A stretch of 64,000 nt of DNA from NCBI GenBank assembly GCA_026129305.1, contig JAHCII010000004.1:10446-74445 (forward strand), in the 5' to 3' direction. Made by a program: the position numbers and the translations under genes. This document shows, piece by piece, positions 16,549 through 56,039 of the stretch; the stretch's first letter is position 1; every line of letters begins with the position of its first letter. The notes beneath the pieces are model-generated. The model was not told the DNA's origin. It searched no databases and saw nothing but the letters and a program-made list of their open reading frames with translations. This DNA comes from Anaerolineales bacterium. GTDB lineage: Bacteria > Chloroflexota > Anaerolineae > Anaerolineales > UBA11579.

Positions 16549-16562
16549 AGAATTGTAAAAAT

Positions 16563-17744: not shown

Positions 17745-17779
17745 AGTTACCAATTTCTCTGGCATATAATGAGCCTTCC

Positions 17780-28421: not shown

Positions 28422-28494
28422 GCCGAGGTAGCTCAGTTGGTAGAGCACGCGACTGAAAATCGTGGGGTCGCCAGTTCAAGTCTGGCTCTCGGCA
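28422..28494 (+). tRNA. tRNA-Phe (GAA)
   Basis: Cloverleaf folded by hand: acceptor GCCGAGG/TCTCGGC, anticodon loop CTGAAAA, T-loop TTCAAGT. CCA is not fully encoded. Confidence 0.9.
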
Positions 28495-28497
28495 CCT

Positions 28498-28522
28498 AAG
28501 CCAGCGCAAAGCGCTGGCTTTT
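28498..28522 (+). terminator. intrinsic terminator after tRNA-Phe
   Basis: AAGCCAGCGC-AAA-GCGCTGGCTT followed by TT. Confidence 0.65.
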
Positions 28523-28568
28523 AAGAGAACCTGCTGGGCGAAGCCCAGCAACGGTTCTCTAGCATGGA

Positions 28569-28598
28569 TTGCACAAGCAAGATAGACTGCGTTATAAT
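28569..28598 (+). promoter_or_regulatory. promoter of tRNA-Gly
   Basis: TTGCAC, an 18-nt spacer, TATAAT (28593-28598). Confidence 0.6.
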
Positions 28599-28612
28599 CC
28601 TCAGCCTAACTT

Positions 28613-28685
28613 GCGGGCGTGGCTCAGTTGGTAGAGCGTCTCCTTGCCAAGGAGAAGGTCACGAGTTCGAGTCTCGTCGCCCGCT
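28613..28685 (+). tRNA. tRNA-Gly (GCC)
   Basis: Acceptor GCGGGCG/CGCCCGC, anticodon loop TTGCCAA, T-loop TTCGAGT, discriminator T. Confidence 0.9.
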
Positions 28686-28692
28686 CTGGTAC

Positions 28693-28723
28693 AAAAGAAA
28701 CGGGAAGCTTCCCGTTTCTTTTT
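28693..28723 (+). terminator. intrinsic terminator after tRNA-Gly
   Basis: GAAACGGGAAGCTTCCCGTTTC followed by TTTTT. Confidence 0.75.
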
Positions 28724-28760
28724 GTTTCAGTCAAGTTTGCTCGGTATAATCACGACGTTT

Positions 28761-28831
28761 GGCGACGTGGCCAAGTGGTAAGGCAAGGGTCTGCAAAACC
28801 CTGACCACGGGTTCGAATCCCGTCGTCGCCT
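28761..28831 (+). tRNA. tRNA-Cys (GCA)
   Basis: Acceptor GGCGACG/CGTCGCC, anticodon loop CTGCAAA, T-loop TTCGAAT, discriminator T. TATAAT at 28745-28750 lies 10 nt upstream. Confidence 0.9.
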
Positions 28832-28845: not shown

Positions 28846-28875
28846 AAAATAGCAGCCCAACGGGCTGCTATTTTT
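28846..28875. terminator. bidirectional terminator (tRNA-Cys / rnhA)
   Basis: AAAATAGCAGCCC-AAC-GGGCTGCTATTTTT. Overlaps the rnhA stop codon. Confidence 0.7.
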
Positions 28876-29302
28876 GTTTCGACATGGCCTGGCGGGCCAG
28901 CTGATCCACGCGCTGGTTGTCCCGGTTGGTCGAGTGGCCTTTGACCCAATTCCAGCGGACCTGGTGGCCTTGGATGGCGCCGGCCAGCGCTTGCCACAGT
29001 TCCACATTGGCCAGCGCCCCGCCTTTGCGCTTCCAACCGCGCGCTTGCCAACCGGGCAGCCATTCGGTGATGCCTTTGCGCAGGTACTGCGAATCGGTAT
29101 AGAACTCCACCTGGCTGCCGGCCGGCAAAGCCTGCAGGGCGCGCAGCGCGGCGGTCAGTTCCATGCGGTTGTTGGTGGTGGCTGGTTCGCCGCCGCTGAG
29201 TACCTGCTCGCCCTCGGCGCTGCGCAACAGGGCAGCCCAGCCGCCAGGGCCGGGGTTGCCCAGGCAGGAGCCGTCAGTGTAAATAACAATGGGGGATTGC
29301 AT
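28868..29302 (-). CDS. rnhA: ribonuclease HI
   Basis: Trimmed to ATG 29302: [26 protein letters not shown]...[14 protein letters not shown]...TDSQYL...W..VKGHS...NQRVDQLA. Confidence 0.9.
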
Positions 29303-29327
29303 GCCCGCATTGTAGCGGACGCGGTGG

Positions 29328-29816
29328 TTATTGGTCGGTTTCGTTGAAGTAGACCCAGCTCTGCAGGTCCGGGGGTTCAATGCCCAGCTCGGTCAGAATC
29401 GCTTTGATCTGCTCGCGGTGTTCCGTGGCGTGGTTGATCACCTGGGTAAGAAGGATACTTTTGGGCACCTGCCGCGGCGTGCCGCGCCAGTTGACTTCCA
29501 CTGCGTCCTCGGCTTGCACGCTGGGCGCCCAGTCGATCAACCCTTCGCCGGTCTGACGCAGTGCCTCGGCCATTTCCGCCATGCTCATCGGTGGGGCGTC
29601 CTCAGGATGTGCGTAGGGCTGGCCGGTACTGATGCGCGAGAAATACGACCGCTCGGAAATGGTGATGTGCTGCAGGGTCTCGTAGATGCTGCCATACGAC
29701 CCGGCGATGCGCGCCTCGAGCTGTTCGGCGGTGAGCTTGGCGCAGTGTTCCAGCAGACGCAGGTTGGCCCACAAGTGATGGCGGAAGAGCACTGTCAGTG
29801 CGGTTTCAGGTTGCAT
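29328..29816 (-). CDS. DinB family protein
   Basis: 162 aa: [16 protein letters not shown]...[11 protein letters not shown]...[11 protein letters not shown], the four-helix DinB pattern with a His triad. Confidence 0.75.
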
Positions 29817-29822: not shown

Positions 29823-31184
29823 CTAGATGCGCACGCGCTCGCCGTAGAGTTGCTCACGCAGGTTGCTGACCTGGCGGCGCAGGCGCTCGTCGTGCTCCAG
29901 CAGTTCGTTGACCTTCTGGCAGCCGTGCATTACGGTGGTGTGATCGCGGCCGCCGAGCAGTTCGCCAATCGCCGGCAGGGAGAGCTGGGCTTCCTCGCGC
30001 AGCAGGTACATGGCCACTTGGCGGGCCAGGGCTACTTCGGCCGAGCGCTCGCGGGAGAGCAGGCGCTGCATGGAAACGCTGAAGGCGCGGCTGACGGCTT
30101 CGACCAGCTGCTCCGGCTCCATCGGCTGCGGGTCGGGCAGCAGGTCAGCCAGGGCGCTGTCCACCAGGTTGGGGCTCAGCGGCATGTTGCGCAGGTAGGC
30201 GTAGGCGATGATGCGGTTGAGGGCGCCTTCCAGCTCGCGGATGTTGGATTGCATGCGCGCGGCAATCGTTTCCAGCACGGCCGGGTCCACCTGCTTGCCC
30301 AGGCGCTCGGCGTTGCTGCGCAGGATGGCCAGGCGCGTCTCGTAGTCCGGCGACTGGATGTCGGCAGTAAGGCCCCATTCGAAGCGCGAGCGCAGACGCT
30401 CTTCCAGCGTGACCAGGCCTTTGGGCGAGCGGTCGGAGGTCAGCACGATCTGCTTGTTCTGTCCGTGCAGGGTGTTGAAGGTGTGAAAGAATTCTTCCTG
30501 GGTCGATTCCTTGCCAGCGATGAATTGGATGTCGTCGATCAAGAGCACATCGGTGCGGCGGTATTTGTCGCGGAAAGCCTGAGTGCTGTGGCTACGGATG
30601 GCGTGGATCAGATCGTTGGTGAATTCCTCAGAGGAGACATACAGTACTTGCAAGCCGCTTTGCACGGCGGCATTGCCGATGGCGCGCAGCAAGTGGGTCT
30701 TGCCCAAGCCGACCCGGCCATAGAGGAAGAGCGGGTTGTACGACTTGGCTGGGTTGTCCGCTACAGCCAGGGCGGCGGCATGGGCCAGGCGGTTGCTGCC
30801 GCCGACCACGAAGGTCTCGAAGGTATAGCGCGGATTGACAGTGAAGTTGCCTGAGCCGTAAGTGCTGCTGAGTTCGATCTGCTTTTCTGGCTCAGATTCA
30901 TTGGCCGGGGCTTCGCTGAGCGTCTCGGGCGGATTGGTGGCCTGCCAGACCACAAAGCGCACTTCCACACTGCGGTTCATCATGCCGGTCAGCAGGCGGG
31001 TCACCAGGCTCTTCAGCCGGCTTTCCAGCCAATCACGCGCATAGGCGTTGTTTACGCCAACCACAAAGGAGCCATCCTCATACGCCACCAGCTCGGCGTC
31101 GCGCACCCAGGTGTCAAACGTGCCTTTGGGCATGTCCACTTGCAACTGGCCCAGGGCGGCTTGCCATGCTTGGCTGGCGTTCAT
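29823..31184 (-). CDS. dnaA: chromosomal replication initiator protein DnaA
   Basis: 453 aa. Walker A GRVGLGKTHLL. Box VII and sensor motifs. C-terminal DNA-binding signature IGELLGGRDHTTVMHGCQKV. AGGAGG lies 11 nt upstream of the ATG. Confidence 0.95.
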   Translation of the reverse strand: MNASQAWQAALGQLQVDMPKGTFDTWVRDAELVAYEDGSFVVGVNNAYARDWLESRLKSLVTRLLTGMMNRSVEVRFVVWQATNPPETLSEAPANESEPEKQIELSSTYGSGNFTVNPRYTFETFVVGGSNRLAHAAALAVADNPAKSYNPLFLYGRVGLGKTHLLRAIGNAAVQSGLQVLYVSSEEFTNDLIHAIRSHSTQAFRDKYRRTDVLLIDDIQFIAGKESTQEEFFHTFNTLHGQNKQIVLTSDRSPKGLVTLEERLRSRFEWGLTADIQSPDYETRLAILRSNAERLGKQVDPAVLETIAARMQSNIRELEGALNRIIAYAYLRNMPLSPNLVDSALADLLPDPQPMEPEQLVEAVSRAFSVSMQRLLSRERSAEVALARQVAMYLLREEAQLSLPAIGELLGGRDHTTVMHGCQKVNELLEHDERLRRQVSNLREQLYGERVRI

Positions 31185-31925
31185 ATGGGATGCAACCTCC
31201 TTTGCTAAGATGTCTTTTGCAGTGAGTAGCTAGGGAGAATGAACCCATCGTCGTCATGCGGTGACGATCGCAATTCGCCAGCTATTCGATTGCTTTGTAT
31301 TGGTGTCCAGCAGCCACACATCTTGATGTGCAGGGGCGTGATTCTAAATCAATAAACCCTGCTGACCATGCGCAACGCCCTACGCTTGCCTAAAAAAACC
31401 CCATTCTTTAAGAATTTGGAATGTTAAAGAATCGGCTGGATAGAGCCGCACATTTTTGGCCGGCCCAAAGCCTTTTAGCTCATTTGTTTGAGCCTAGGGA
31501 TGGGGGTTGCCACGGACAAAAGCCCTACACAGCGTATCTGCAGGCTGGGGAGCCGCGCCCAAAGCAGGCTGCAAGACCAAACTTAAAAGGCCTTGGGATG
31601 CGAGCCACCCCCTGTACGAGAAACTAACTTCGCAGTTTGTGTATCTCGTTTTTTGCGCCCAGAATCCATCCCCAAACCTGTCAAAACCTCCACAGAAATT
31701 TTCAATAATGGTGTGCTTGGTGCGCACCTGCAGGATACACAGTCTTCCCCCAGGGGTCTAGCCTTCTGATTCTGAGCTTCATATAGTTAGTTCAACATGT
31801 TGGGATACCCAATCCTGCTTCCTGGAGGTGCCTACGCATAACGTACTGACCTGACCCATTCGCCGAAATACTTCGGTAATTTCTAACCCTATTCCCTCAA
31901 ACACATTTTTGAAAGAGAGAAGAGA
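31185..31925. other. long non-coding region upstream of dnaA: candidate oriC / dnaA control region
   Basis: 741 bp with no credible ORF, and visibly more AT-rich than the flanks (for example 31390-31432). Only degenerate DnaA-box-like 9-mers are present (AGATACACA rc at 31637-31645, GGATACACA, ACCTCCACA, GCAGCCACA). No perfect TTATCCACA. Confidence 0.4.
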
Positions 31926-33005
31926 ATGACCGTACGAAAAGGTATTCTGTTGTTAATGCTGTTTGCGATGGCCCTGGCGGCCTGTGCGCCGAGCGCGGTG
32001 GCGCCGGCGGCCGCGGAAGAAAGCTCGGCTGTGAACCTGGCCCCGATCAAGGACTATCTGTTGGGCAAGACGGATGAACTGGAGGCGGCCAGTGGCGACC
32101 TGCGGGCCGCCGCGCAAGCCTACTATGACCTGGCCGAAACCGCCGGTTTTGATTACGCCGCCATGTGGGACGCCGATGCGGCCCCTGTCAGCGCCGCGTT
32201 GCAGTCCGCCAAGGACGCCTGGATCGTGGCCGCGCCTGCCTATGAGCAGATGGAAGGCATTGTGGCCGGTGTGCCGACCCTGGCTGACTATGACGTGATC
32301 CTTGACGCGGGCGCTGCCGGTGACGAGGACCCCGAAGGCGCCGTGCCCTTCGACCTGGAATTGCCGGATGGGCGCGTCTTCCCCCAGCCGGGCAACCTGT
32401 TCGGCGTGCTGGAAAGCGCCCTGTGGGGCACCTATGATGACTACCTGTCTGGCGTGGAAGCCGACCTGGACGGCAACGGCCAGATCGGCTTTGGCGAGGC
32501 GCTGCCGGATGCCAACGTGTTGAAGGCCGCCGCCGACTTGACCTATGCCTACGCGGTCGAGCTCAAGGAAGCCTCCCAAGCCTGGACCCCCAGTGAGTCG
32601 GATGCCTTCACTGCCCTGGTGGTGATGGTGCCGACGATGAGCGAGTATTTTGAATCGTGGAAGAACTCGCGCTTTGTGGCTGGCGACGACTCGACCCAGC
32701 GTGACTTTGTGGTCATCTCCCGTCTGGCGGACATCCAGGACATTCTGACCAGCCTGGAAGTGGTCTATGCCGAAGTCAAGCCGTTGGTGGCTGGTTACGA
32801 CACTGCTCAGGCGGACGCCATTGAGCAGGGCATGACCGACTTGAAAGCTTTTGTGGCTGGCGTGTATGCTGAGGAGCAGAGTGGCAAGCAGTTCAGCGCG
32901 GAAGAGGCTGACACGCTGGGCCAGGAAGCCCAGGACCGCGCCACGGCTGTGGCTGGCCAGGTGGCCCAGGTGGCGGCTGCGCTGGATATCGAGATCGCTG
33001 AATAA
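31926..33005 (+). CDS. imelysin-like / EfeO-family periplasmic lipoprotein
   Basis: Lipoprotein signal LLMLFAMALAAC. Helical acidic protein. Sits directly upstream of an FTR1-type permease. The family call rests mainly on context and general pattern. Confidence 0.5.
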   Translation: MTVRKGILLLMLFAMALAACAPSAVAPAAAEESSAVNLAPIKDYLLGKTDELEAASGDLRAAAQAYYDLAETAGFDYAAMWDADAAPVSAALQSAKDAWIVAAPAYEQMEGIVAGVPTLADYDVILDAGAAGDEDPEGAVPFDLELPDGRVFPQPGNLFGVLESALWGTYDDYLSGVEADLDGNGQIGFGEALPDANVLKAAADLTYAYAVELKEASQAWTPSESDAFTALVVMVPTMSEYFESWKNSRFVAGDDSTQRDFVVISRLADIQDILTSLEVVYAEVKPLVAGYDTAQADAIEQGMTDLKAFVAGVYAEEQSGKQFSAEEADTLGQEAQDRATAVAGQVAQVAAALDIEIAE

Positions 33006-33020: not shown

Positions 33021-33059
33021 GCCTGGCAAGGCCGTTCCCAACGGCCTTGCCAGGCTTTT
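33021..33059 (+). terminator. strong stem-loop/terminator between the imelysin-like gene and the FTR1 gene
   Basis: GCCTGGCAAGGCCGTT-CCC-AACGGCCTTGCCAGGC followed by TTTT. Confidence 0.75.
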
Positions 33060-33073: not shown

Positions 33074-35383
33074 GTGAGACGCATTGCCTTCAACACCTTT
33101 GCTGTGCTTGTTTGTATAAGTTTGCTGGCGGTGTGCGCCAGCCCGGTCCGGGCCGCAGCCTCAACCGCTCCGCAAGACCTGGCGGAGCAGATGCGCGCCG
33201 CACTGTTTGCCGCCCAGCGCGATCTGCTGGCGGGCGGCGATGGCCTGGCCGCTTTTGCGCAGGCCCAGGCGGCCTACGGCAGTTTGCGGCCCCTGCTGGC
33301 CGGCCCTGCGACCGACGCGGCGGCATCCGCCGACCAGGCCTTTGGCGCCATGCAAGCCGCGCTGGCCGGCGCCGATGCGCCGGCTTTTGCCGCTCAGCGT
33401 TCCCTGGCTTGGACGGCTGTGCTGGCGGGCAGTTACCACATGGTCGAACAGGCCATGCTGGCGGGCGAGCATGCCCAGGCCCAAGCCTGGCTGGCCCTGC
33501 GCGAGTACCGCACGGCCAACCGCTTTGCGCGCCCCAATGCAGATGCGACCCTGGCCGTGCAGCGCCTGGCCGCATCTGAAATGGATTCCGAAACCGCCCT
33601 GCAGTTCTTGCGGGCGGATCTGTTTGACGCTTATCAGGCCCGCCTGGGTGAGGCGCTGCGTGAACTGCAGCTGGCTGAGGCCAGTGGCTTCGCGGTGCGC
33701 CGCGCGGAACTGGTCGGCCTGGCACAAGGCTACTTTGGCCTGCTGAGCGCGGCCTATCAGGAGCAGCGCGGCCAGGATGCACTGCAGACCGCCCAGCAAG
33801 CCTTCCAGCAACTGACTGTGGCAGCCCTGGCGGGCCAGCCGCTGGATGTGCGCTTGCAGGCGGTGACGGCGGTCCTCGAGGGTTTCCGTGCCGCACCGCT
33901 GAGCCCGGCAGAGCAATCCCGTCGCGCAGGCCAACTGCTGCGCTATGTCAATCTGGTCTCGGTCGAATACGGCCGCGGTGTCTCGGATGGGCGCGTGACC
34001 CTGCAGTTCGAGATCCAGGAAGCGGTCACATTTCAGGAAGCGGCGCAGGCCGCCTTCGATGATCTGCGCGACCTGCTGGCCGAGCTGGATGCGCCAGCCA
34101 CCCAGCAGGCCCAGGCGCACCTCAGCGAACTGAACGCCATGCTGCGCAGTGCCAACAGCGGTGGCACAGTGGCCAGCGCCGGCGAGATGCGCACCAGCGC
34201 CGAGCAGCTGCTGGCCCTATTGAATGAAGTGATCCCCGCCGAGTGGAAACAAGGCAGCACTTCCGGTGATTTTGATGTGATCGATTCGATGCTGGACCAA
34301 ATGGAGAATGCTGTGCGGGGCGGCGATTATGCTGCGGCCGAATCGGCCCGCATTGAGGCTTATGCGATTATGGAAAGCGGGCCGGAGGCGCGGCTGATCG
34401 CCATGGCGCCGGACCTTAAGCTGCGGGTGGAGGAGTTGTTCTGGAACGGCAACAGCCAAACCGTGGGCCTCAGCCGCTTGCTGTCTGAGCAGGCTCCCCT
34501 GCAAGAGGTGCGCTCCGTGCGCGTCGCCCTGGATGCCCAGTTGGCCGAGGTGGAAACCTTGCTCTCAGGCTCCAGCACGCCGGCTTCCATTCTGAGCAAT
34601 GCGGCCGTGATCGTCTTCCGTGAAGGCTTGGAAGCGGTGCTGATCCTGGCCTCGCTGATGGGCAGCTTCAAAGCCGCTGAAGGCCGCAAATATCGCCAGC
34701 CGCTGTGGCTGGGCAGCGGGCTGGCCTTGCTGGCCACCGTGCTGACCTGGACCTTGGCGCGCGAGGTGCTGCAAGCCCTGGCGCGCTACGGCGAAAAGTT
34801 GGAAGCGGTGATTTCGCTGATCGCCATCATCGTCTTGCTGCTGATCACCAATTGGTTCTTCCATAAAAGTTACTGGGATGGCTGGTTGGCGCGCTTCCAT
34901 GCCCGTAAGCGCAGCCTGCTCTCGGGCGAGACGGGTTTGCTGCTGGGTCTGGTTTCGCTCGGCTTCACCAGCGTCTATCGTGAAGGTTTTGAGACGGTCC
35001 TGTTCTTGCAAGCCCTCGTGCTGGACGGCGGCACCTCCGTGGTGCTGGGCGGCGTGGCCATCGGGCTGGCTTTCACCTTCCTGGTTGGCTTGCTGACCTT
35101 TCGCTTTCAGGCTCGCCTGCCGCACAAAAAGATGCTGATCGTGACCGGCATCATGATCGGAGCGGTGTTGCTGGTCATGGTGGGCAAGACGGTGTATGTC
35201 TTCCAACTGGTGGGCTGGATGCCGGCCACGCTGGTCTCGGGGCTCAGCTTCCCCACCTGGTTCAGCATGTGGTTTGGGGTCTATCCTTCCTGGGAGGGGC
35301 TGCTGCTTCAGTTCTCGGCGGCCACTTTCGTGATCGGCAGCTATTACCTGGCGGAAGGCCTGCGAAAACGCCAGCGGGCCTAA
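33074..35383 (+). CDS. FTR1/EfeU-family iron permease fused to a ~480-aa N-terminal periplasmic helical domain
   Basis: GTG start with AAGGA upstream. Signal peptide. The C-terminal 7-TM region carries two REXXE motifs (REGLEAV, REGFETV) diagnostic of FTR1 permeases. Confidence 0.8.
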   Translation: MRRIAFNTFAVLVCISLLAVCASPVRAAASTAPQDLAEQMRAALFAAQRDLLAGGDGLAAFAQAQAAYGSLRPLLAGPATDAAASADQAFGAMQAALAGADAPAFAAQRSLAWTAVLAGSYHMVEQAMLAGEHAQAQAWLALREYRTANRFARPNADATLAVQRLAASEMDSETALQFLRADLFDAYQARLGEALRELQLAEASGFAVRRAELVGLAQGYFGLLSAAYQEQRGQDALQTAQQAFQQLTVAALAGQPLDVRLQAVTAVLEGFRAAPLSPAEQSRRAGQLLRYVNLVSVEYGRGVSDGRVTLQFEIQEAVTFQEAAQAAFDDLRDLLAELDAPATQQAQAHLSELNAMLRSANSGGTVASAGEMRTSAEQLLALLNEVIPAEWKQGSTSGDFDVIDSMLDQMENAVRGGDYAAAESARIEAYAIMESGPEARLIAMAPDLKLRVEELFWNGNSQTVGLSRLLSEQAPLQEVRSVRVALDAQLAEVETLLSGSSTPASILSNAAVIVFREGLEAVLILASLMGSFKAAEGRKYRQPLWLGSGLALLATVLTWTLAREVLQALARYGEKLEAVISLIAIIVLLLITNWFFHKSYWDGWLARFHARKRSLLSGETGLLLGLVSLGFTSVYREGFETVLFLQALVLDGGTSVVLGGVAIGLAFTFLVGLLTFRFQARLPHKKMLIVTGIMIGAVLLVMVGKTVYVFQLVGWMPATLVSGLSFPTWFSMWFGVYPSWEGLLLQFSAATFVIGSYYLAEGLRKRQRA

Positions 35384-35615
35384 ACTGCCAGACAACTCCT
35401 GGCGGGCAAGCTGCCCGTCAGGAGTTGTAGTTACTTCTAAAAGCTCTAAAAACTTCAAATCAGGTGAGGACTGCGCACAACGTGGGGGCTGGACTAGGTG
35501 CGCTGCAGTTCGTATAGTGGTTGGCTGAATTCGCCATCTGGTGCTAAAACGAGTCAAGTTACATATTCACTTGCCGGCTTAGATGGTAAAACTGCTTGAG
35601 CGACGAGGAGTTCTT

Positions 35616-36194
35616 ATGCGGACAAAATGGAATACCCGTGATTTGATGGTCACTTTGGTGATCGGTCTGGCTTTGGGCGTGCTGCTCATCCCGGTGACCT
35701 ATGCTTATGTGGCCTTTTTGGGCGTGGGCGGCTTGTTCACCCGCTCTCTGATTGGCGGCATTTATTTTCTGCCAGCGGTGTTTGCGGCTTATGTGGTGCG
35801 CAAGCCGGGCGCCAGCTTCTTGGCCAGCGCCATCGGCGGCCTGACCAGCATGCCTTTCACGCCCTATGGCTTTATTGTGCTGGCAGTCAGCATCTTGATC
35901 GGCTTGGTGGGCGAATTGTTCATCTGGCTCAACACGCGCTACAAAGACTTCGCCCTGCCGCGTCTGCTAGCCGCCGGGGCGGCCACCGGCTTGGCGGTTT
36001 TCTTGCTGATCTTGGGTTCGGTGTTGCGCTCTGCGGAGTTCGAATGGAACGCGCTGGTGCTGGTGGCTCTGGTGCTCTCGGGTGTCACCTTCGCGGTGTG
36101 CGGCCTGCTGGCCAAGGCCCTGGCTGACGCAGTCGCCCGCACTGGGGTGCTGGGCAATACGGCTTTAGGAAAGGCCAATGTTGAAGAGATCTGA
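35616..36194 (+). CDS. ECF transporter S component, YkoE-like
   Basis: Trimmed to ATG 35616, which has GAGGAG 6 nt upstream. 6 TM helices. The W-x-x-RDL...VVRKPGASFLASAIGGL pattern matches YkoE-type S components (recalled from memory). Confidence 0.65.
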   Translation: MRTKWNTRDLMVTLVIGLALGVLLIPVTYAYVAFLGVGGLFTRSLIGGIYFLPAVFAAYVVRKPGASFLASAIGGLTSMPFTPYGFIVLAVSILIGLVGELFIWLNTRYKDFALPRLLAAGAATGLAVFLLILGSVLRSAEFEWNALVLVALVLSGVTFAVCGLLAKALADAVARTGVLGNTALGKANVEEI

Positions 36195-36510
36195 GTTGGC
36201 GGCACCCAGCCCGGTTGTACAGAAACGCAGTGACCGTCTCACGGGCGGTTATTTGGTCTTTGTAGCCGTTCGCTGCACCTTGCAATACGTAGTCCTGCCC
36301 TTTTTGTTGCCCTTCCTCGGCTTCGGCGGCGCCTTCTCTACCGGGATCGCCGCCGCGATTGATATCCTGGCGCTGGGGATGATCATCTACAACATCTTCA
36401 ATCTGTGGAACACGTCCTGGCGCTGGCGTTATCTGGCACTGAGCGTGATCATGATCTCAATTTTGGTGGTCTTCCTTTACCAGGATTTCAAATACTTCTT
36501 TCCTGGTTAG
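36178..36510 (+). CDS. small hypothetical membrane protein (3 TM)
   Basis: 110-aa ORF between the S component and the ATPase, overlapping the S component by 17 nt. No recognisable family. The start is uncertain. Confidence 0.4.
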   Translation: MLKRSELAAPSPVVQKRSDRLTGGYLVFVAVRCTLQYVVLPFLLPFLGFGGAFSTGIAAAIDILALGMIIYNIFNLWNTSWRWRYLALSVIMISILVVFLYQDFKYFFPG

Positions 36511-36519
36511 AGGGCTGGA

Positions 36520-38235
36520 ATGATTGATGTTTCAGCCCTGACAATCAAATACACAGGGCGCAAACGACCGATTTTACGCGACCTGTCTCTGCAGGTCCCC
36601 CAGGGCCAAACCCTGCTCATCCTGGGAGCCTCCGGCTCCGGGAAGAGCAGCCTGGCCCTGACCTTCAATGGGCTGATCCCACACTCGATCGGTGAAGTGC
36701 TGGGGGGACAGGTGCGCGTGGCTGGCGCCGATACGCAGCAAACCTCCGTGGCCCAGCTGGCCCAGCGGGTCGGCATCCTCTTTCAAGACCCTGATGCACA
36801 ATTCGCCACCCTGACGGTTGAGGACGAGATCGTCTTCGGGCTGGAAAACCTGTGCCTGGACCCGGCTCAAATGGAAGCGCGTCTGGAGACGGCCCTGAGC
36901 CAGGTGGGCATGCTGCATGCTCGCCACCGGCCGGTCTATGCCCTGTCCGGTGGCGAGAAACAGCGCATCGCCCTGGCGGCGCTGCTGGCCATGCAGCCTG
37001 AGGTGCTGGTCTTCGACGAACCCACCGCCAACCTCGACTCGGTGGGCACCCAGCAGGTCTTCGCTTTGCTGGCCCAGCTCAAGGCGCGCGGACAGCACAC
37101 CTTGATCCTGATCGAGCACAAGTTGGATGAGCTGATGCACCTGGTGGACCGGGTGCTGGTGCTGGACTCCGAAGGCCAGATCTTTGCCGACGGCGCTCCG
37201 CGCGAAATTTTCGACCGCTATGCCGCAGAGCTGCAAGAGATGGGGGTCTGGACGCCGCAGGTGTGCATGCTGGCCCAGGAACTGCGCCTAGCCGGGCATG
37301 TGCTGCCGTCCTTCCCGGTCACGATCGGCGAAGCGGTCAAGGTACTGGCTCCGCTGCTGGCTGCCCACCCGGCCCAGTCCGCATCGTCTGCACCGCCCAC
37401 CAACGCCAGCCCGCGCAGCAGCGTCTATTCCATTCGTGACCTGTCTTTTCACTACGGCGATATTCCCGCCCTGCACAACGTCTCGATGGAGATCAGCCAG
37501 GGCGATTTTCTGGCGATCGTCGGGCCTAATGGGGCGGGCAAAAGCACCCTGGCCCGTCACCTGATCGGCCTGCTGGATCCCCCGGCGGGCACGGTCTTCC
37601 TCAGCGAGCGGGACATTCATGCCCTGGAGCCCCGCCGGCTGGCCGAGCAGGTCGCCTATGTTTTTCAGAACCCGGAGCACCAATTCGTCACCGAGCGCGT
37701 GGAAGACGAAGTGGCCTATGGCCTGCGCGTCGCCGGGTTGGACGAGGCACTGGTCGCCGAACAGAGCCGCCAACTGCTGGATACCTTTGGCCTGGCGCGC
37801 TATGCGCGCGCCAACCCCTTTACGCTCAGCCACGGCGAAAAACGCCGGCTGAGCGTGGCCGCCATGCTGGCGGTGGGCCAGCAAACCCTGATCCTGGATG
37901 AGCCCACCTTTGGGCAGGACGAGCGCAACGCGGCGGCCCTGATGGCCTTGCTGCGCGCCCTGAACGCTCAGGGCAAGACCATCATTATGATCACGCACGA
38001 CATGCGCCTGGTGGCGGAAGCGGCGGACAAGGTGGCCGTTATCTTGGAGGGCCGGCTGGAATTCTTTGGGCAGCCCGCGGCGTTGTTCGCCCAAGAAGAC
38101 CTGCTGGCCCGGGCGCACCTCAATCTGCCCCCGCTGGCGCGCCTGGCGGCGCTGATGGCAACCCAGTATCCGCATATGCAGGGCTGGTCCACCTTGCAGG
38201 ACTACCAGACACTCACGCAGATGGTCAGGGTTTAG
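36520..38235 (+). CDS. ECF transporter ATPase, duplicated (two fused ABC domains, YkoD-like)
   Basis: Two Walker A motifs (GASGSGKSS, GPNGAGKST), two signature motifs (LSGGEKQR, LSHGEKRR) and two Walker B motifs (LVFDEPT, LILDEPT). Confidence 0.9.
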   Translation: MIDVSALTIKYTGRKRPILRDLSLQVPQGQTLLILGASGSGKSSLALTFNGLIPHSIGEVLGGQVRVAGADTQQTSVAQLAQRVGILFQDPDAQFATLTVEDEIVFGLENLCLDPAQMEARLETALSQVGMLHARHRPVYALSGGEKQRIALAALLAMQPEVLVFDEPTANLDSVGTQQVFALLAQLKARGQHTLILIEHKLDELMHLVDRVLVLDSEGQIFADGAPREIFDRYAAELQEMGVWTPQVCMLAQELRLAGHVLPSFPVTIGEAVKVLAPLLAAHPAQSASSAPPTNASPRSSVYSIRDLSFHYGDIPALHNVSMEISQGDFLAIVGPNGAGKSTLARHLIGLLDPPAGTVFLSERDIHALEPRRLAEQVAYVFQNPEHQFVTERVEDEVAYGLRVAGLDEALVAEQSRQLLDTFGLARYARANPFTLSHGEKRRLSVAAMLAVGQQTLILDEPTFGQDERNAAALMALLRALNAQGKTIIMITHDMRLVAEAADKVAVILEGRLEFFGQPAALFAQEDLLARAHLNLPPLARLAALMATQYPHMQGWSTLQDYQTLTQMVRV

Positions 38236-38237
38236 TC

Positions 38238-39056
38238 ATGCGCATGGTCTATCTGCAGGGCGAATCATTCCTGCACAAGCTCAACCCGCTCAGCAAGTTC
38301 CTAGTGAACATGGCGTTGTTCACTTTTATGCTCTTCACCAGCGACCCGTGGACGCCGCTGGTCTTCATTGTGCTGACCGTGTTGGTCTTGCTGATACTGG
38401 GCAAAATTCCCCTAATGCGCCTGGCCAAAATTCTGGCCCCCCTGGCCTTGATCGCGGTGCTGTTTTTGCTGATGTACCCGCTGGCTGTGCGCCAAAGCCT
38501 AGTGGACCACACCCCACTGCTGTGGCAATGGGGGCCGTTGCGGGTCTATCAGGGTGGTATCAGCTACGCCATCTCCACCGCTCTGCGCATTTTGGCGCTG
38601 CTGACCTTGTCTTTGCCCTTTTCTCTGACGACCGACTCGGCAGATTTTATTCGCGCTCTGGTGCAGCAGTGGCGCTTGCCCTACCGGGTTGGGTACAGCG
38701 TGCTGGCCGCCTTTGGCTTCGTCCCTCTGCTGCAGAGCGAGGTCTCGGTGATCAGTGCCGCCCACCGCGTGCGCGGCGTGCACGCCGCGGCCGGCTGGCG
38801 CGGCGCCTACGAACGCCTGCGCCGCTACGCTGTGCCGTTGCTGACCGGCGCCATCCGCCAGGCGGAGCGCACGGCCCTGACTATGGACGGGCGCGCCTTT
38901 GGCGCCTTGCCAGCGCGCACATACTTTCGGCGCATGCAATTTTTCCCGGCGGATTGGCTCTTTATCACGGGCTCATTGGTCGCTTCGCTCCTGCTGGTGC
39001 TGGTCTTGCAATATTTTGGCTTGCTGGGGGATTTGAGCTTGCTGAAAATTCTCTAA
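38238..39056 (+). CDS. ECF transporter T component (EcfT/YkoC-like)
   Basis: 272 aa polytopic protein with ARG-type coupling helices (ISAAHRVRG, AIRQAERTALTMDGRAF). Confidence 0.8.
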   Translation: MRMVYLQGESFLHKLNPLSKFLVNMALFTFMLFTSDPWTPLVFIVLTVLVLLILGKIPLMRLAKILAPLALIAVLFLLMYPLAVRQSLVDHTPLLWQWGPLRVYQGGISYAISTALRILALLTLSLPFSLTTDSADFIRALVQQWRLPYRVGYSVLAAFGFVPLLQSEVSVISAAHRVRGVHAAAGWRGAYERLRRYAVPLLTGAIRQAERTALTMDGRAFGALPARTYFRRMQFFPADWLFITGSLVASLLLVLVLQYFGLLGDLSLLKIL

Positions 39057-39136
39057 CAGGTTGAAAACTACATTCAACTACTAAACTTGTGTAAAGTTAC
39101 ATATTTCCCATAGAATACTCCCATTGAGGTGATTCT

Positions 39137-39682
39137 ATGGTGATGGAACGAACACTCCCGGTGCTAACCGGTTTGTCTGCAGAAGAGCGCCGCAGCGCCA
39201 TTCGTGAGGCCTATGACCAGGACCGCAAGCAAATGGTGCTACTGTTGGCCATGCAGCTTGGCGTGCCTGAGCGTGAAGTGGTGGAAGCCATGCCGCTGGA
39301 CCTGGCGCGCGAGCTGGACTTTGAGCGTTGGGAAGAGATCATTCGCTCTTTTGAAGCCCTGGGTGAAGTGCATGTGATCGTCTCCAACGCTGCCTCCACC
39401 CTGGAGTGTGTGGGCGAGTTTGGCAAATTCAGCACAGCACATGGCTTCTTCAACGTGCAGACCCCCTCGCTGGACATGCACATTCGCATCGCCGGCTTGG
39501 CCAGCGTGTACGCGGTGCGCAAGCCCAGCCACACAGACGGCAAAGAGGCGCTAAGCGTTCAGTTCTTTGACCCGGGCGGCAGCGCGGCGTTCAAAGTCTT
39601 CCTGACCTTCGGCGGCAAGGACCCTTCGCCGGAACGCCTGGCGCAATACGAAGACATCATCCAGCGCTTCTCGCTGGACTAG
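39137..39682 (+). CDS. HutX/ChuX-like cytoplasmic heme-binding/utilisation protein
   Basis: 181 aa. Co-linear with recalled V. cholerae HutX (…GEVHVIVSNAASTLECVGEF…GFFNV…HIRIAGLASVYAV…AFKVFLTFGGKD). GAGGTG SD lies 6 nt upstream. Confidence 0.7.
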   Translation: MVMERTLPVLTGLSAEERRSAIREAYDQDRKQMVLLLAMQLGVPEREVVEAMPLDLARELDFERWEEIIRSFEALGEVHVIVSNAASTLECVGEFGKFSTAHGFFNVQTPSLDMHIRIAGLASVYAVRKPSHTDGKEALSVQFFDPGGSAAFKVFLTFGGKDPSPERLAQYEDIIQRFSLD

Positions 39683-39687: not shown

Positions 39688-39718
39688 AAAAAAAGAGCGG
39701 CGAGAGCCGCTCTTTTTT
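39688..39718. terminator. bidirectional intrinsic terminator
   Basis: AAAAAAAGAGCGGC-GAGA-GCCGCTCTTTTTT. Confidence 0.8.
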
Positions 39719-42552: not shown

Positions 42553-43341
42553 TCAGGCGGGCACGCGCTGGCTGAGCGGCAGGCACAGCGGCAAACCGGT
42601 GACTGGGTGCGGCACAATGCGGCTTTTGATCCCGAAGACCTGCTCCACAGTTTCTTCGGTCAGCACTTCCGCCGGGCTGCCCTGGGCGAAGATCTGGCCC
42701 TCACGCAGCGCCACCAGGCGGTCAGCGTAGGCTGCCGCCAGGTTCAAGTCGTGCAAGACCATGATGATGGTCTTGCCCTGCTGGTTGAGGTCGGCCAGCA
42801 GATTGAGGATCTCCAGCTGGTGTGCCAGGTCCAGGTAAGTGGTCGGTTCGTCCAGTAGCAGGATATTGGTCTCTTGCGCCAGCGCCATGGCGATCCAGGC
42901 GCGCTGGCGTTGCCCGCCGGAGAGGGTGTCCACGGCGCGCTCGGCCAGCGGCTGCAGGTGGGTCAGGTCCAGGGCGGTTTGCAGAGCTTGCTCGTCCGCC
43001 TGGCTCCATTGCTGGAACCAGGCCTGGTGTGGGTAGCGGCCCTGGGCCACCAGCTCGCGCACGCTGATCCCTTCGGGCGCGGTGGGCGCCTGTGGCAGGA
43101 TGCCCAGCTCGCGGGCCATCTGCTTGGTGGGCAGGCTGTGGATGGCGCGGCCGTCCAGCAGCACGCTGCCCTGGCGCGGCCGCAGCAGACGCGCCATGCC
43201 GCGCAGCACGGTGCTTTTGCCGCAGCCGTTGGGGCCGATCAGCGCCGTGATCTGCCCGGAGGGCGCCGCCAGGCTGAGCGCCTCGATGATCGCCAGCGGG
43301 CCGTAGCCCAGGGACAGGTCTTGGGTTTGCAGCAGGCTCAT
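42553..43341 (-). CDS. Fe(3+)-siderophore ABC transporter ATP-binding protein (FepC/FhuC-like)
   Basis: Walker [10 protein letters not shown], signature LSGGQRQR, Walker B LLLDEPT. Confidence 0.85.
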
Positions 43342-43343
43342 AA

Positions 43344-44408
43344 CTAAATCTTCTCTCTCTTCCACAATAGGTACAAAAAGAACGGCACGCCCACCAGGGC
43401 GATGATGATGCCGGCCGGGATCTCTATGGGCGAGAAGAGGCTGCGGCCTATCAGGTCGGCCAGCAGCACCAGAAACCCACCCGCCAGGGCCGAGGTGGGA
43501 ATGACGCCTTCATATAGGGGGCCGACCATGCGGCGGGCCGCGTGCGGGGCGATCAGCCCGACAAAACCGATGATGCCTGCCACGGTCACCGTAATGGCGG
43601 CCAGGGCCACCGCCAGCAGCAGCAAAAAGCCGCGTTTGAGTGTGAGGGGCAGGCCCAGTCCCTGGGCCACTTCCTGGCCCAGGTTCAGCGCGTTCAAATC
43701 TCGTGCTGAGAATGCCGCCAGCGGCAGGCACACCACGATCCAGGGCAGAACCACGCTCACATCCGTCCAGCTGGCCGCGTACACGCTGCCCGCCAGCCAC
43801 ATCATCGCCTTTTGCACGTGCCACAGGTCGCCAAAGGTCAGCGCGTAGGATGTGTAGGCACCCATCACGGCAGAGAGACCAATGCCGATCAGGATCAGCC
43901 GAATGGGCGAATCGCCGCCAGCGTCGCCCGTGTTGCGCCAGGCCAGCAGGTACAAGAGCGCAGCGACCAGCAAGCCGCCACCGAAGGCGGCCAGCGGCAG
44001 CGCGCTGCTGGAAACGAAAGGCAACAGAATAATCAGCGTGACGGCTGCCGCGCTGGCTCCGGCGGTCACGCCGGTCAGGTCTGGCGAGGCCAGCGGGTTG
44101 CGGGTGAGGCCCTGGATGATGCCGCCCGAGGTGGCCAGGGCCGCGCCCACCAGCCAGGCCAGCAAGGCGCGCGGTAAGCGTAGCTGCATAATGACGAATT
44201 CATAGCGGGCGCCCTCGGCGCGGCCCAAAAGCGTGCCGACTACATCTGCCAGGGGGATCGGATACTCTCCCACAGAGACGCAGACAGCCAGCACGGCCAA
44301 AGTAGCCAGCAGCAGGGCACTGATCACCCAAGGTGCCCGCTGGTCGAAGCGCAGTGAGACCCCGCCAGGCAGCCGGTAGACCTTCCAAGAAGAAGACTGG
44401 GCGCTCAT
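43344..44408 (-). CDS. FecCD-family iron-chelate ABC permease
   Basis: 354 aa polytopic protein with typical FecCD motifs ([26 protein letters not shown]). Confidence 0.85.
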
Positions 44409-45424
44409 CGTTTGATCTTGGAGCGAACCAGATAGATGAAAACTGGCCCGCCAATGGCGGCGGTCATGATGCCCACGGGCATCTCCAGTGGGCGCACCAG
44501 CACGCGTCCCACCAGGTCAGAGAGCACCAGCAGGCTGGCGCCCACCAGCGCGGCGTACGGCAAGGTCCAACGGTAGTCCACTCCGGTGAACATGCGCACC
44601 ATGTGCGGCACGACCAGGCCAATAAAGCCGATCGGTCCGGCCAGCGCCACCGCGCCGCCGGCCAGCACGACCACGATCACGGCGCTGATGGCTTTGATCC
44701 AGCCCACGTTTTGCCCCAGGCCGCGCGCCACGTCTTCGCCCAGCGAGAGCGTGGTGATCTGCCGGCCAAAGATCAGGGCCAGGGCCAGGCCGCCCAAAAT
44801 AAAAGGCAGGCTTTGCGTGACCAGCTCCATGCTGCGTCCGGCGACACTGCCTGCCAGCCAAAAGCGCACTTCTTCCAATGAGCGCTGATCAAAAAGCAAT
44901 ATAGTGGTGGTCAGCGAGGCCAGCAGGGCGGTCAGCGCCGCCCCGACGATAGTCAGCTTGTACGGCGTCACCCCGCCGCGGCCCATGGCGCTCAGCGCAT
45001 ACACAGCCAGCACGGTCAGCGTGCCGCCCACAAAGGCGAACAGGGCATACACCGGCAGGGCGCTGATCTTGAACAGGAAGATGCCGCTGACCACGGCCAA
45101 AGTGGCGCCGGCTTCGATCCCCAACAGGCCGGGATCGGCCAGCGGGTTGCGCGTCAAGCCTTGCATGATGGCGCCGGCTACGCCCAGCGCCGCGCCGACC
45201 AGGATCGCCGTCAGGGCGCGCGGCAGCCGCAAAGTCTGAATGATCAGGTGCCCAGTATCCTTTGCGTCGAAATGTGAGAATGAAGCCAGCACATCTTGAA
45301 TATTGATGTCTGCCGCACCAAAGGCGATGCTGCCCAACGCGACCAAGACCAAAATGGCGCCGGCCACGGGCAGCAGGCTGAAGAGCAGCCAGGGGCGGGT
45401 TTGAGCAGCAGGTTGACCGGGCAT
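44405..45424 (-). CDS. FecCD-family iron-chelate ABC permease
   Basis: Trimmed to ATG 45424. Motifs [14 protein letters not shown] and [12 protein letters not shown]. Overlaps the next permease by 4 nt. Confidence 0.85.
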
Positions 45425-45428
45425 GTTG

Positions 45429-46250
45429 CTACGCGTTGGCGTGCTCTTCCTCAATGTGCTTGCGGACCATCTCCACGCGTTCTTCCAGCGGGCGGTGCGG
45501 GCAGGAGGAACACATGCCGCTATTGTCGGTACGATAGTACAGGCAGCAGGAATTGCGATTGACCATGTAGTGTGTCTCGCCAAGGTGTTCCACGGCGATC
45601 AAGTCGTTACGAAGGCTGAGCAAAGAAGGTACGGCCGCAAAGGCCCGGCTTTCCTGGGCCCCGATCAACTCATTGCCCATCAGTTCACCCAGCCACATCA
45701 AGGCATAGGCACAATAGTCAGCCGCGGTGGACCACATGGCGGATTTCCCCAAACGGCTGTAAGCGAAGGTGGCATCCACCACCGGTGTGAAGCTCTCGAT
45801 CAGTCTGGCGCGCAATGCCTCGCGCAGTGCGTCCCGGTCGGCGACGACTTCGCAGTCTGCATGGTCTGCGGCCGGGTCGCCGGGCAGGGCCACAAAGCCG
45901 CGCCCAGTCCAGGCCAGCCCGGCGATACCGCCGTGCTCATCAAAACGCACTTGCAGGCTGTCGGCCCTCAGGTCGGGAACACGCTGTTCCACCAGGAACA
46001 TAGCCATGGACACGAGTTGGATGGGATAGATGTAGTGCCCGAACCACAGCATGGCCGGCGGGCGCAGCTGTTCAGTGGGGTAATTTTTGCGCGTGCGCTC
46101 GATCACCTCAGCCAGTGCGGGGCCTTGGGCGTCGGCCAGCTGCCGCACGCTGATCCAGCCCGGCTGGTCATCGGGCTGCGCCAGCAGGCGGCCGCGGCCC
46201 TCCTGATGCAGTTGGCCCAGCTTGGCCAGCGATTCTTCGATGGGGTGCAT
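45429..46250 (-). CDS. FhuF-like siderophore-iron reductase ((2Fe-2S)-binding)
   Basis: C-terminal C-C-x10-C-x2-C motif ([18 protein letters not shown]), characteristic of FhuF. Confidence 0.75.
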
Positions 46251-46347
46251 CCTCTACAGCCTTTCTTCTATACGGCACGGGCCGGTCGTTCATTCCATCA
46301 AGAGTGAACGACCGGCCAGGCCGACTGCGCCAAAAGGGGCAGTGGGA

Positions 46348-47400
46348 TTACTGGGTGGCTGGGTCGCCGTCTAGAGCGGTCACCAGCAGCTGTGGCAGCT
46401 CGGTGACCACATAGTCCAGGCTCAGCACGGTGCCGAAGTTCATGGCGTCGTACAGCGGCTGGTCTGCAGTTAGCAGAATGTCGCGGCCTTCGGCGTAGAC
46501 GTTCAGTTGCTGATACACAGGCTCAGCGCGGTAGGCAGCCCCTTCTTCGGCGGTATTGAACAGCCAGATGATCACATCCAGGTCCACCAAGTCCAGGCGC
46601 TCACGGCTGACGCTGGCGCCAAAGGCATCTCCCACCAGCTCACCGATCTCCGCTGGAATGACGAAGCCCAGGTTGGTCATGATACGGCCGCGCACATCCT
46701 GCGGGCCGTAAATGTAGTAATTGTCCGGGTAACCCCAGGGCGAGTTGACCACACCGCTGGCGCCCACGAACTGCGGATAGTGCTGCTGGGCGGCAGCGAA
46801 CTTGCCCTCGACCTCAGCCACCAGGTTGGCAGCCCGCTGTGGCTGGCCGACGATCTGGCCGATCACCAGAGTGATCTCCTGCCAGGGGATGCCCCAATCG
46901 GCGTATGCAGCGGGTTGGGCCACCACCGGAGCGATCTGGCTGAGGGTGTCGTATTCGTCCTGGGTGATGCCCGAATAGAGGCCGACGATCAGGTCGGGGT
47001 TCAAGCCGGCGATCTGCTCGAAATTGAGCTCGGCGCTTGAGAGCACCACCGGCAGCTCCGCACCGCCCAGGTAGCTCTCCGCCCAGGGGAAGATGGCGCC
47101 GGGTTTCTCGCCGTACCACTCGCGGGTGGCCACGGGCACCACGCCCAGGGCCAGCAGGGCGTCCTGCTCGGTCAAGCCGACCAGTACGATGCGTTCGGGC
47201 AGCTCAGAGATGGTGGTCTCGCCGTACTTATGGGCGATGGTCACGGGGTAGGCGCCGTCTTCCACAAGGGCTGCGGGGCCAGTCTCCTCGGCCACAGCGT
47301 CTTCGGCCGGGGCTTCTACAGCAGCCTCTGGGGCTGCAACTTCCTGGTTGGCTGGGCTGGGCGCGCCGCAAGCGGCGGTCACCAGCAGCACCACTGCCAA
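46348..47400 (-). CDS. Fe-siderophore ABC transporter substrate-binding lipoprotein; N-terminus apparently disrupted by a frameshift (see finding)
   Basis: 350-aa ORF from TTG 47400 with the FhuD/FepB-like periplasmic binding pattern. The natural ATG+SD at 47425 is out of frame by one base. Confidence 0.8.
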   Translation of the reverse strand: MAVVLLVTAACGAPSPANQEVAAPEAAVEAPAEDAVAEETGPAALVEDGAYPVTIAHKYGETTISELPERIVLVGLTEQDALLALGVVPVATREWYGEKPGAIFPWAESYLGGAELPVVLSSAELNFEQIAGLNPDLIVGLYSGITQDEYDTLSQIAPVVAQPAAYADWGIPWQEITLVIGQIVGQPQRAANLVAEVEGKFAAAQQHYPQFVGASGVVNSPWGYPDNYYIYGPQDVRGRIMTNLGFVIPAEIGELVGDAFGASVSRERLDLVDLDVIIWLFNTAEEGAAYRAEPVYQQLNVYAEGRDILLTADQPLYDAMNFGTVLSLDYVVTELPQLLVTALDGDPATQ

Positions 47401-55968: not shown

Positions 55969-55973
55969 AACCA

Positions 55974-56034: not shown

Positions 56035-56039
56035 GTTGA

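Follow-up and report, generated by a model that had tools for sequence, protein, structure and literature searches.

What does a YkoE-type energy-coupling factor (ECF) transporter import when the gene directly behind it encodes a HutX-like heme-handling protein? This arrangement is found in a 64-kb stretch of contig JAHCII010000004.1 (64,000 nucleotides, 62.7% GC; hereafter the window) from a metagenome-assembled genome (MAG) of the order Anaerolineales (Chloroflexota), and its S component is 100% identical to the NCBI entry 'ECF transporter S component [Anaerolineales bacterium]'. An initial annotation of this DNA had suggested a heme or iron-porphyrin importer, on the strength of gene position and of a 12-mer shared by the regions upstream of the S-component gene and of the hutX-like gene. 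In our analysis the functional idea is upheld on comparative grounds, whereas the 12-mer that headed the case does not carry it. Judging from sequence comparison and predicted structure, we regard it as probable, if with some reserve, that the cluster encodes a dedicated group I ECF importer on the YkoEDC architecture for heme or a close iron tetrapyrrole, which would hand its ligand to the HutX-family protein. The five genes, all of them located as the initial annotation had described, are:

35616-36194, + strand: S component, 192 aa, PF09819 at 66.9 bits
36178-36510, + strand: open reading frame (ORF) of a small three-helix membrane protein, 110 aa, without a family, overlapping the S gene by 17 nt
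36520-38235, + strand: fused double ECF ATPase (A-A'), YkoD-like, 571 aa, two ABC_tran domains
38238-39056, + strand: T component, CbiQ family, PF02361 at 108.9 bits
39137-39682, + strand: ChuX/HutX-family cytoplasmic heme-carrier-like protein, 181 aa, PF06228 at 95.5 bits (cut-off 25)

The S component starts at the ATG at 35616, behind the ribosome-binding site (RBS) GAGGAG, rather than at the upstream ATG at 35583, and the genes from S through T overlap or stand 2-9 nt apart. The fused ATPase scored above the cut-offs of both ECF ATPase equivalogs (TIGR04520, 443 bits; TIGR04521, 430 bits). Thus a CbiQ/EcfT-type T component and two ECF ATPase domains are co-operonic with the S gene, as in group I ECF transporters.

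The S component belongs to the YkoEDC group by both family (PF09819) and fold. It matched Bacillus subtilis YkoE (PDB 5EDL) with E=5e-19, and its AlphaFold2 model (predicted local distance difference test, pLDDT, 86.5) showed the six-helix ECF S fold with 5EDL as the top PDB match (template modelling, TM, score 0.88; 32% identity), followed by RibU, PanT and ThiT. In YkoE, thiamine is held by Trp49 through stacking, by Glu77 and Gln95 at the pyrimidine and by Asp131 and Tyr46 at the thiazole (Josts et al. 2016, PMC5037267). The positions Y46/W49/E77/Q95/D131 read G/Y/S/I/I in the S component of the window and T/F/A/T/V in a sister clade from Thermoflexales/Roseilinea; four of the five thiamine ligands have therefore been replaced by small or hydrophobic residues in this clade, and the stacking Trp49 by Tyr or Phe. 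Two distant PF09819 paralogues provided an internal positive control for the ligand and riboswitch tests. They come from our set of loci fetched from relatives (558 kb in total, numbered with the prefix L): L033, from an Anaerolineales MAG, keeps YWEQD, and L034, from Spirochaetota, has FWEQN. Each is preceded by a thiamine pyrophosphate (TPP) riboswitch (RF00059, 62-65 bits; 198-319 in L033 and 6157-6272 in L034). Since L033 has both the riboswitch and the intact ligands, thiamine-type YkoE paralogues also exist within Anaerolineales.

No such riboswitch accompanies the transporter of the window. The Rfam scan of the whole window at the gathering score returned tRNAs only, with TPP, cobalamin and every other family absent, and nothing credible was found between 35300 and 35700 at E<=10. 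RF00059 had no match in L001, L003, L005, L021, L022 and L035, and no TPP or cobalamin riboswitch was present in the seven loci scanned that carry hutX or this S clade. A riboswitch upstream of S was rejected, since Rfam was blank, the 96-nt putative leader folds like its shuffles (z=-0.96) and the leaders have no aptamer-like core. No thiamine genes were found near the cluster. The initial annotation had seen no THI-box upstream of S and had doubted a thiamine/hydroxymethylpyrimidine (HMP) function; the Rfam scan and the remodelled ligand positions support it on both counts, and the S component, although it has the YkoE fold, falls into a clade separate from the thiamine transporters that lacks their ligands.

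The family as a whole appears to be diverse. An exhaustive profile search with the S family gave only 533 clusters (50% identity) at E<=1e-3 and 14 at E<=1e-30. Among the 117 nearest PF09819 representatives (from P0310-P0458) that could be aligned, 38 keep at least three of the four residues W49, E77, Q95 and D/N131; because about one-third carry the thiamine signature and many other pockets occur, PF09819 can be considered a multi-specificity family, which probably holds several substrate specificities beyond thiamine. The remaining representatives show many different pocket signatures. The S clade of the window is small and restricted to Chloroflexota. We infer that the specificity of its S component has shifted from thiamine/HMP to heme or a closely related iron tetrapyrrole, and the 'thiamin/HMP permease' names given to this clade in databases are very likely wrong.

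The second gene of the cluster had no Pfam or NCBIfam match. Its product has 108 homologues, all 'hypothetical' and without a Pfam domain, and those with a named source all come from Anaerolineales, Anaerolineae or Thermoflexales. In almost all complete loci of the two clades, with or without HutX, the ORF lies between the S and ATPase genes. Invariant residues include R32-C33-T34 and Y37 in helix 1, W77, T79, W81, R82, R84 and Y85 in the loop LWNTSWRWRY that joins helices 2 and 3, and D103. The AlphaFold2 model has three helices (pLDDT 73) and no significant PDB match. A CbiN/NikN-type ECF accessory protein was considered and rejected, as there was no Pfam, NCBIfam or PDB-fold match and the predicted topology differs. 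Conservation and position suggest that the small protein is a subfamily-specific subunit of the transporter.

The HutX-like protein is a clear member of its family, with 75.2 bits against PF05171 in addition to the PF06228 match. Its nearest PDB chains are PhuS, Vibrio cholerae HutX (5EXV), ChuS, HemS and ChuX, each of them described as a heme protein. Among 17 HutX homologues, both H115 and H132 are invariant, and H115 aligns with a His of V. cholerae HutX. The family is much larger than that of the transporter (1240 HutX matches versus 81 for the S family), and HutX orthologues (57-66% identical) were found in four further Chloroflexota loci, L038 (7001-9730), L039 (6136-9641), L046 (5198-9148) and L047, where the gene is followed by one for a major facilitator superfamily (MFS) transporter with PucC/BT1 matches and by one of MerR type. 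Divergent to hutX stand a DtxR/MntR-like gene in L039 and a ferritin gene in L046 and L047, and in L038 the best Fur-box match of the locus (TGATAATATTTATTA, 13/14, at 6940-6959) lies in the hutX promoter. These hutX-MFS loci may represent a second, MFS-based tetrapyrrole uptake module. Thus hutX adjoins a membrane transporter gene in every Chloroflexota locus examined, as expected for an importer paired with a cytoplasmic acceptor. In L018, hutX (10523-11064) gives two alignments that overlap each other (residues 1-153 and 119-181), which points to a frameshift, from either an assembly error or a pseudogene.

The linkage of transporter and HutX is conserved. The genes for S, small protein, double ATPase, T and HutX follow one another without interruption in the window and in ~16 other contigs from Anaerolineales (identity 50-76% for S and 69-88% for HutX), while the flanks change: the upstream neighbour of the block is either dnaA/oriC or an imelysin-FTR1 pair, and downstream there is a gene for either an SH3 lipoprotein or an epimerase. 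In most relatives, dnaA adjoins the cluster. The imelysin-FTR1 pair stands directly 5' of S in seven genomes (named loci L008, L009, L010, L013, L014 and L040). Compared with L001, the window has the same gene order plus two iron modules that flank the cluster:

31926-33005, + strand: imelysin (Pfam), followed by a terminator at 33021-33055
33074-35383, + strand: FTR1-family iron permease (Pfam), followed by a terminator at 35392-35428
42553-47400, - strand: siderophore-type uptake cluster of an ATP-binding cassette (ABC) ATPase, FecCD, FecCD, an FhuF-like reductase and Peripla_BP_2
45429-46250, - strand: FhuF-like reductase of this cluster
46348-47400, - strand: Peripla_BP_2 binding protein of this cluster

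The FecCD-type importer lies 3 kb downstream of the ECF-HutX cluster, and the corresponding syntenic regions in L001, L003 and L040 lack the siderophore-type cluster. That the transporter is tied to a HutX-like protein and embedded among iron-uptake genes had been stated by the initial annotation, and synteny across rearranged flanks together with these recurrent iron neighbours bears this out. Two genes downstream of hutX were considered as surface heme receptors and rejected: a 704-aa product, which looks like a polytopic membrane protein and has no Pfam match, and the SH3 gene, which encodes a lipoprotein whose matches to SH3_3 and DUF4453 are weak and below threshold.

In the Thermoflexales/Roseilinea sister clade, the S, small-protein, ATPase and T genes are kept and HutX is absent. 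In locus L035 of this clade, two genes are co-directional with the ATPase and T genes, one for an ABM protein whose best NCBIfam matches are HmuQ and IsdG/IsdI-type heme degraders and one for a rhodanese protein with a DUF2470/HugZ-like tail, and FhuF and FecCD-type genes adjoin them. The S gene stands beside Peripla_BP_2 genes in L030 and has a P450 gene directly 5' of it in L022. Two other neighbours were discarded as tetrapyrrole clues: the CobW and URO-D genes, because the URO-D protein is MtaA/CmuA-like and the genes are convergent, and the L021 aminotransferase, which is GABA-transaminase-like rather than HemL.

With B. subtilis YkoEDC(F), the system of the window shares PF09819, the fold, a dedicated T component and fused double ATPase, and a cytoplasmic ligand-binding protein alongside (YkoF in Bacillus, HutX in the window). 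It differs in the lack of a THI-box, in the replaced thiamine contacts, in an additional membrane protein of 110 aa, conserved and encoded between S and the ATPase, and in having a partner of the ChuX/HutX family and neighbours for iron uptake. ECF heme importers are known from Firmicutes, namely LhaSTA of Staphylococcus lugdunensis, SiaFGH of group A Streptococcus and Lsa1836-1840 of Latilactobacillus sakei (PMC7299338; bioRxiv 10.1101/864751). Their S components were reported to be mutually dissimilar, and independent recruitment of S scaffolds therefore has a precedent. Like the cluster of the window, these are dedicated ECF modules in iron/heme-acquisition loci with the same proposed substrate class. 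They are host-associated, whereas the present system comes from environmental Chloroflexota, has no surface heme receptor or haptocorrin-like binding protein in the window, and includes HutX as a cytoplasmic partner as well as an additional small subunit in the membrane. LhaS, SiaF or Lsa1836 may itself be a member of PF09819. Compared with V. cholerae HutX (hutWXZ) and ChuX of the Escherichia coli O157 chu locus, the HutX-like protein agrees in Pfam family, in fold family and in its single-domain size, with the H115-equivalent His invariant; its gene, however, is not beside HutW/HutZ, the ChuW/ChuS degraders or a TonB receptor with a type II ABC importer, but beside an ECF transporter, or an MFS transporter in other Chloroflexota. 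A full-text literature search returned no paper that relates YkoE/PF09819 to heme or HutX to ECF transport. ECF heme import itself is already known; what would be new here, on present evidence, is a YkoE-scaffold ECF transporter in environmental Chloroflexota for which a new specificity is predicted and which is accompanied by one more subunit and by HutX.

If the cluster imports heme, the S component would capture the ligand on the outside of the membrane in a pocket made larger and hydrophobic by replacement of the thiamine ligands. The S component would then topple against the T component, driven by ATP hydrolysis in the fused ATPase, and the ligand would pass to the HutX-family protein as its cytoplasmic acceptor and chaperone, the analogue of YkoF in Bacillus, for onward use as an iron source or cofactor. 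Expression would probably be coordinated with iron uptake via sites other than the 12-mer. As for ligand contacts, our guess is that Y31 and R43, which are invariant in the clade and lie near the predicted outer mouth, could serve as heme ligand and propionate contact respectively. A fuller version, in which a five-gene Anaerolineales heme module made up of a YkoE-scaffold S component, an obligatory small subunit, ATPase, T and HutX is controlled by an iron/heme sensor through a GKTGAA-N7-TTCAMC operator, is put forward only tentatively, and we would sooner doubt it as a whole than rely on it.

Several observations weigh against heme as the substrate. The HutX-like protein reached 84.4 bits against the HutX equivalog TIGR04108 (cut-off 110) and is thus a family member rather than a demonstrated HutX orthologue; the NCBI name of its family says only 'heme-like substrate-binding', and its GFFN stands in place of the GYYN of V. 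cholerae HutX, a motif in which a Tyr serves as heme ligand. The S component of the window contains no histidine, unlike LhaS, for which spectra suggested His ligation, and a conserved axial ligand is not evident at the W49 position, which is Tyr in the window and Phe in the sister clade. At the S and hutX promoters, canonical Fur (19-mer, 7-1-7) and IdeR boxes gave no match above background, whereas lhaS has a Fur box upstream. No gene for a heme-degrading enzyme was found in the 64 kb. One Anaerolineales genome (L017/L037) has the transporter without an adjacent hutX, and the ~17 loci are not independent, because the HutX linkage is confined to one order. Neighbours in the sister clade are mixed, the commonest being a convergent pair of genes for a CobW-like GTPase and an MtaA/CmuA-like methyltransferase.

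Part of this evidence would also suit an importer of another tetrapyrrole or of an iron chelate, with HutX as the carrier for that molecule; corrinoids or cobamide precursors, protoporphyrin, coproporphyrin, chlorophyll-derived pigments and siderophores are candidates. We think this unlikely, though not to be dismissed lightly. The broad NCBI family name and the sub-threshold equivalog score would fit it, as would the pairing of HutX orthologues elsewhere with MFS proteins resembling PucC/BT1, whose family is linked to the handling of (bacterio)chlorophyll. A corrinoid could be read from the CobW-like GTPase and the corrinoid-dependent MtaA/CmuA-type methyltransferase, which lie convergent to T in at least six sister-clade loci, but these genes are on the opposite strand and missing from Anaerolineales loci, and the cobalamin riboswitch that normally precedes corrinoid transporters was found in none of the loci scanned. 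Siderophore-type FecCD, FhuF and binding-protein genes near the cluster in the window, L030 and L035 favour a chelate; on the other side, the sole co-operonic enzyme seen is the HmuQ/IsdG-like heme degrader of L035, and the characterized ChuX, HutX, HemS and PhuS relatives in the PDB are without exception described as heme proteins.

An importer of heme would likewise be excluded if the adjacency were only inherited gene order near the replication origin, the ECF transporter importing an unrelated hydrophobic micronutrient and HutX serving another route such as the nearby FecCD-type ABC importer. The location beside dnaA in a syntenically conserved region, shared by the window and its relatives, the restriction of the HutX linkage to Anaerolineales, the many pocket types of PF09819 and the FecCD-type importer 3 kb away are compatible with this. 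However, both flanks have been rearranged repeatedly with the ECF-HutX block intact, L001, L003 and L040 keep hutX directly after T without having the FecCD cluster, three other lineages of Chloroflexota likewise have a membrane transporter gene immediately next to hutX, and the sister clade has independently linked its ATPase and T genes with a heme-degrader-like gene, so we rate mere inherited order as quite improbable. An ordinary YkoEDC thiamine/HMP importer, as implied by the COG/JGI name 'ABC-type thiamin/hydroxymethylpyrimidine transport system permease' and by PF09819 membership, YkoE fold and YkoD-like fused ATPase, is extremely improbable and already contradicted by the sequence: the contact residues are gone, the TPP riboswitch is missing where the L033/L034 paralogues have one together with intact ligands, and no thiamine genes are nearby. 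An importer of heme or a close iron tetrapyrrole is hence the reading that we retain.

A different question is how the S operon and hutX might be regulated together. The relevant sites are:

35556-35567, + strand: 12-mer copy 1, AAGTTACATATT, exact match
39094-39105, + strand: 12-mer copy 2, AAGTTACATATT, exact match, within the spacer of the hutX promoter-like site
35490-35518, + strand: promoter-like TGGACT-17-TATAGT upstream of S, from the consensus scan
35584-35592, + strand: conserved block TGGTAAAAC just 5' of the S RBS, found once in the window
39087-39116, + strand: hutX promoter-like TTGTGT-18-TAGAAT, hexamers assigned by eye and unlisted by the scan tool
39060-39078, no strand assigned: 19-bp palindrome GTTGAA-N7-TTCAAC (GTTGAAAACTACATTCAAC), directly past the T stop and 5' of the hutX promoter
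35454-35468, no strand assigned: 15-bp everted repeat TTCAAA-TCA-GGTGAG with half-sites like those of the hutX palindrome, a candidate regulator site 5' of the S promoter
39689-39718, + strand: intrinsic terminator closing the unit, a 13-bp stem and then a T-run

The initial annotation had noted the 12-mer at both sites with CTAAA(A)C upstream, and this holds: CTAAAAC lies at 35544-35550, 5 nt 5' of copy 1, and CTAAAC at 39081-39086, 7 nt 5' of copy 2. Its distances to the ATG codons need a small correction, as they are 48 and 31 nt rather than 49 and 32. The 12-mer is not a common promoter element within the 64 kb, where no further copy of AAGTTACATATT occurs even at two mismatches and the count at three mismatches equals chance. 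The claim that it strongly suggests a common promoter or operator goes too far, however. Exact 12-mers are frequent in this GC-rich window (729 repeat runs), and among the 528 pairs formed by its 33 intergenic regions, nine (~2%) have an exact 12-mer or longer in common and 13 share at least 13/14 bases. The a-priori p for the S/hutX pair is thus ~0.02, which for a pre-specified pair is only modestly more than chance. The two copies also occupy unlike positions relative to the promoters, copy 1 lying ~40 nt downstream of TGGACT-17-TATAGT and copy 2 inside the TTGTGT-18-TAGAAT spacer. A stronger intergenic repeat than the 12-mer exists elsewhere in the window: the 13-16-mer TAGAGATTGGAGA(TTT) is common to the intergenic regions 16549-16594, 17636-17779 and 55969-56039, with the third copy inverted, and a 15-mer, AATAGAGATTGGAGA, is found at 16560 and 17681; the regions adjoin a LysM gene, a fused glyQS gene and an ATP synthase epsilon gene.

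Comparison with relatives gave a similar picture. The 12-mer is missing at both sites in relatives that have the same operon and an S component 57-76% identical, and it is absent from L001, L003, L007, L015-L020 and other loci with the operon. In L042 (S 95% identical), the S-side copy is intact as GAGTCAAGTTACATATTCAC with CTAAAAC lost, and in L044, from the same sample (HutX 86% identical), the hutX side reads AACCTACACATC with 8/12 matches; L023 retains related cores, AAACCTACA at the S side and AAACCTATA at the hutX side. When the S- and hutX-upstream regions within each genome were compared in 14 relatives, there was no similarity beyond that of shuffles, and the 12-mer was rejected as a conserved operator. 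It may be a young, lineage-specific site, and is weak evidence for shared control of S and hutX. That AAGTTACATATT is a shared operator through which a lineage-specific regulator co-controls the S operon and hutX seems unlikely to us. The match is exact at 12/12 and extends to 14/16 in the same orientation at only two sites in 64 kb, a level reached by 0/60 shuffles, and the L023 cores and the intact L042 copy agree with such a role; the site is non-palindromic, though, and the frequency of comparable repeats, the unequal placement, the 8/12 match in L044, the loss of CTAAAAC in L042 and the absence from relatives with the operon argue the other way.

Other elements are better conserved. Every Anaerolineales locus that we examined has the block (A)ATArrTGGTAMAAC, which includes TGGTAAAAC, 5' of the S gene, and L039 has TGGTCAAAAC 5' of hutX; the block may act as an extended -10 element or as an operator. 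Upstream of hutX, both the -10 element (TAGAAT/TACAAT/TAAAAT) and the TTGTG block are kept in L001, L007, L015, L016, L018, L023 and L044, and the spacer that holds the 12-mer is variable. The palindrome, as GKTGAR-N7-TYCAMC, is found upstream of hutX in eight genomes (the window, L001, L015, L016, L018, L020, L023 and L039); elsewhere in the 558 kb of fetched loci there was only one match, upstream of S in L020. On our estimate, ~0.5 matches would be expected by chance. In L039, from a different Chloroflexota lineage with hutX beside the MFS gene, the palindrome (6868-6886) lies between hutX and the divergent DtxR/MntR-like gene. An RNA hairpin or terminator was rejected, because two of ~8 copies break complementarity at arm position 2; these breaks and the location between divergent genes in L039 make a DNA site more likely. 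The everted 6-3-6 element (TTCACC-N3-GTTGAA type) occurs 124-219 nt 5' of the S start in six genomes (the window, L001, L007, L017, L018 and L020). On this conservation, the palindrome is the best candidate operator, ahead of the 12-mer, and together with the everted repeat and the pre-RBS block offers better candidates for co-regulation. A region with GKTGAA/TTCAMC half-sites was also seen in L020 at 1812-1839.

That S and hutX form two transcription units was an assumption of the initial annotation. Clear terminators follow imelysin, FTR1 and hutX, but none was found between T and hutX, so hutX may be read through from the S promoter. A (C)TAGAT-18-TATAGT block resembling the S promoter is conserved upstream of S in L001, L003, L007, L015 and L020, and a similar block lies upstream of hutX in L039 and of imelysin at ~31757-31786. 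The imelysin block (31757-31786, CTAGCC-18-TATAGTTAG) resembles the CTAGAT-18-TATAGT that precedes S in relatives without the imelysin-FTR1 pair, which suggests that the pair was inserted behind the original promoter of the ECF operon.

Anaerolineales are abundant and mostly uncultured in sludge, sediments and digesters. If the proposed function is correct, ECF heme uptake would extend from three systems of pathogenic and food Firmicutes to a large environmental phylum, with the first ECF heme importer outside host-associated Firmicutes. The 'thiamine' family PF09819 would gain its first assigned non-thiamine specificity, and the ECF parts list a small membrane subunit characterized by the invariant motifs RCT..Y and WNTSWRWRY. 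It would also suggest that environmental Chloroflexota scavenge heme or obtain it by cross-feeding, which could be tested in uncultured Anaerolineales.

Two further features of the surroundings may be recorded. Upstream of the cluster, the window carries three tRNA genes at 28422-28831, RNase H at 28868-29380 (- strand) and dnaA at 29823-31184 (- strand), and beside dnaA 740 nt of non-coding DNA (31185-31925), probably the region of the replication origin. In some relatives, the interval from RNase H to dnaA holds a second dedicated ECF system that is missing there in the window, consisting of an S-like gene, CbiQ, two separate ATPases and then a PfkB-family kinase (L001, 1708-5677; L003, 1527-5643; L037, 380-4465).

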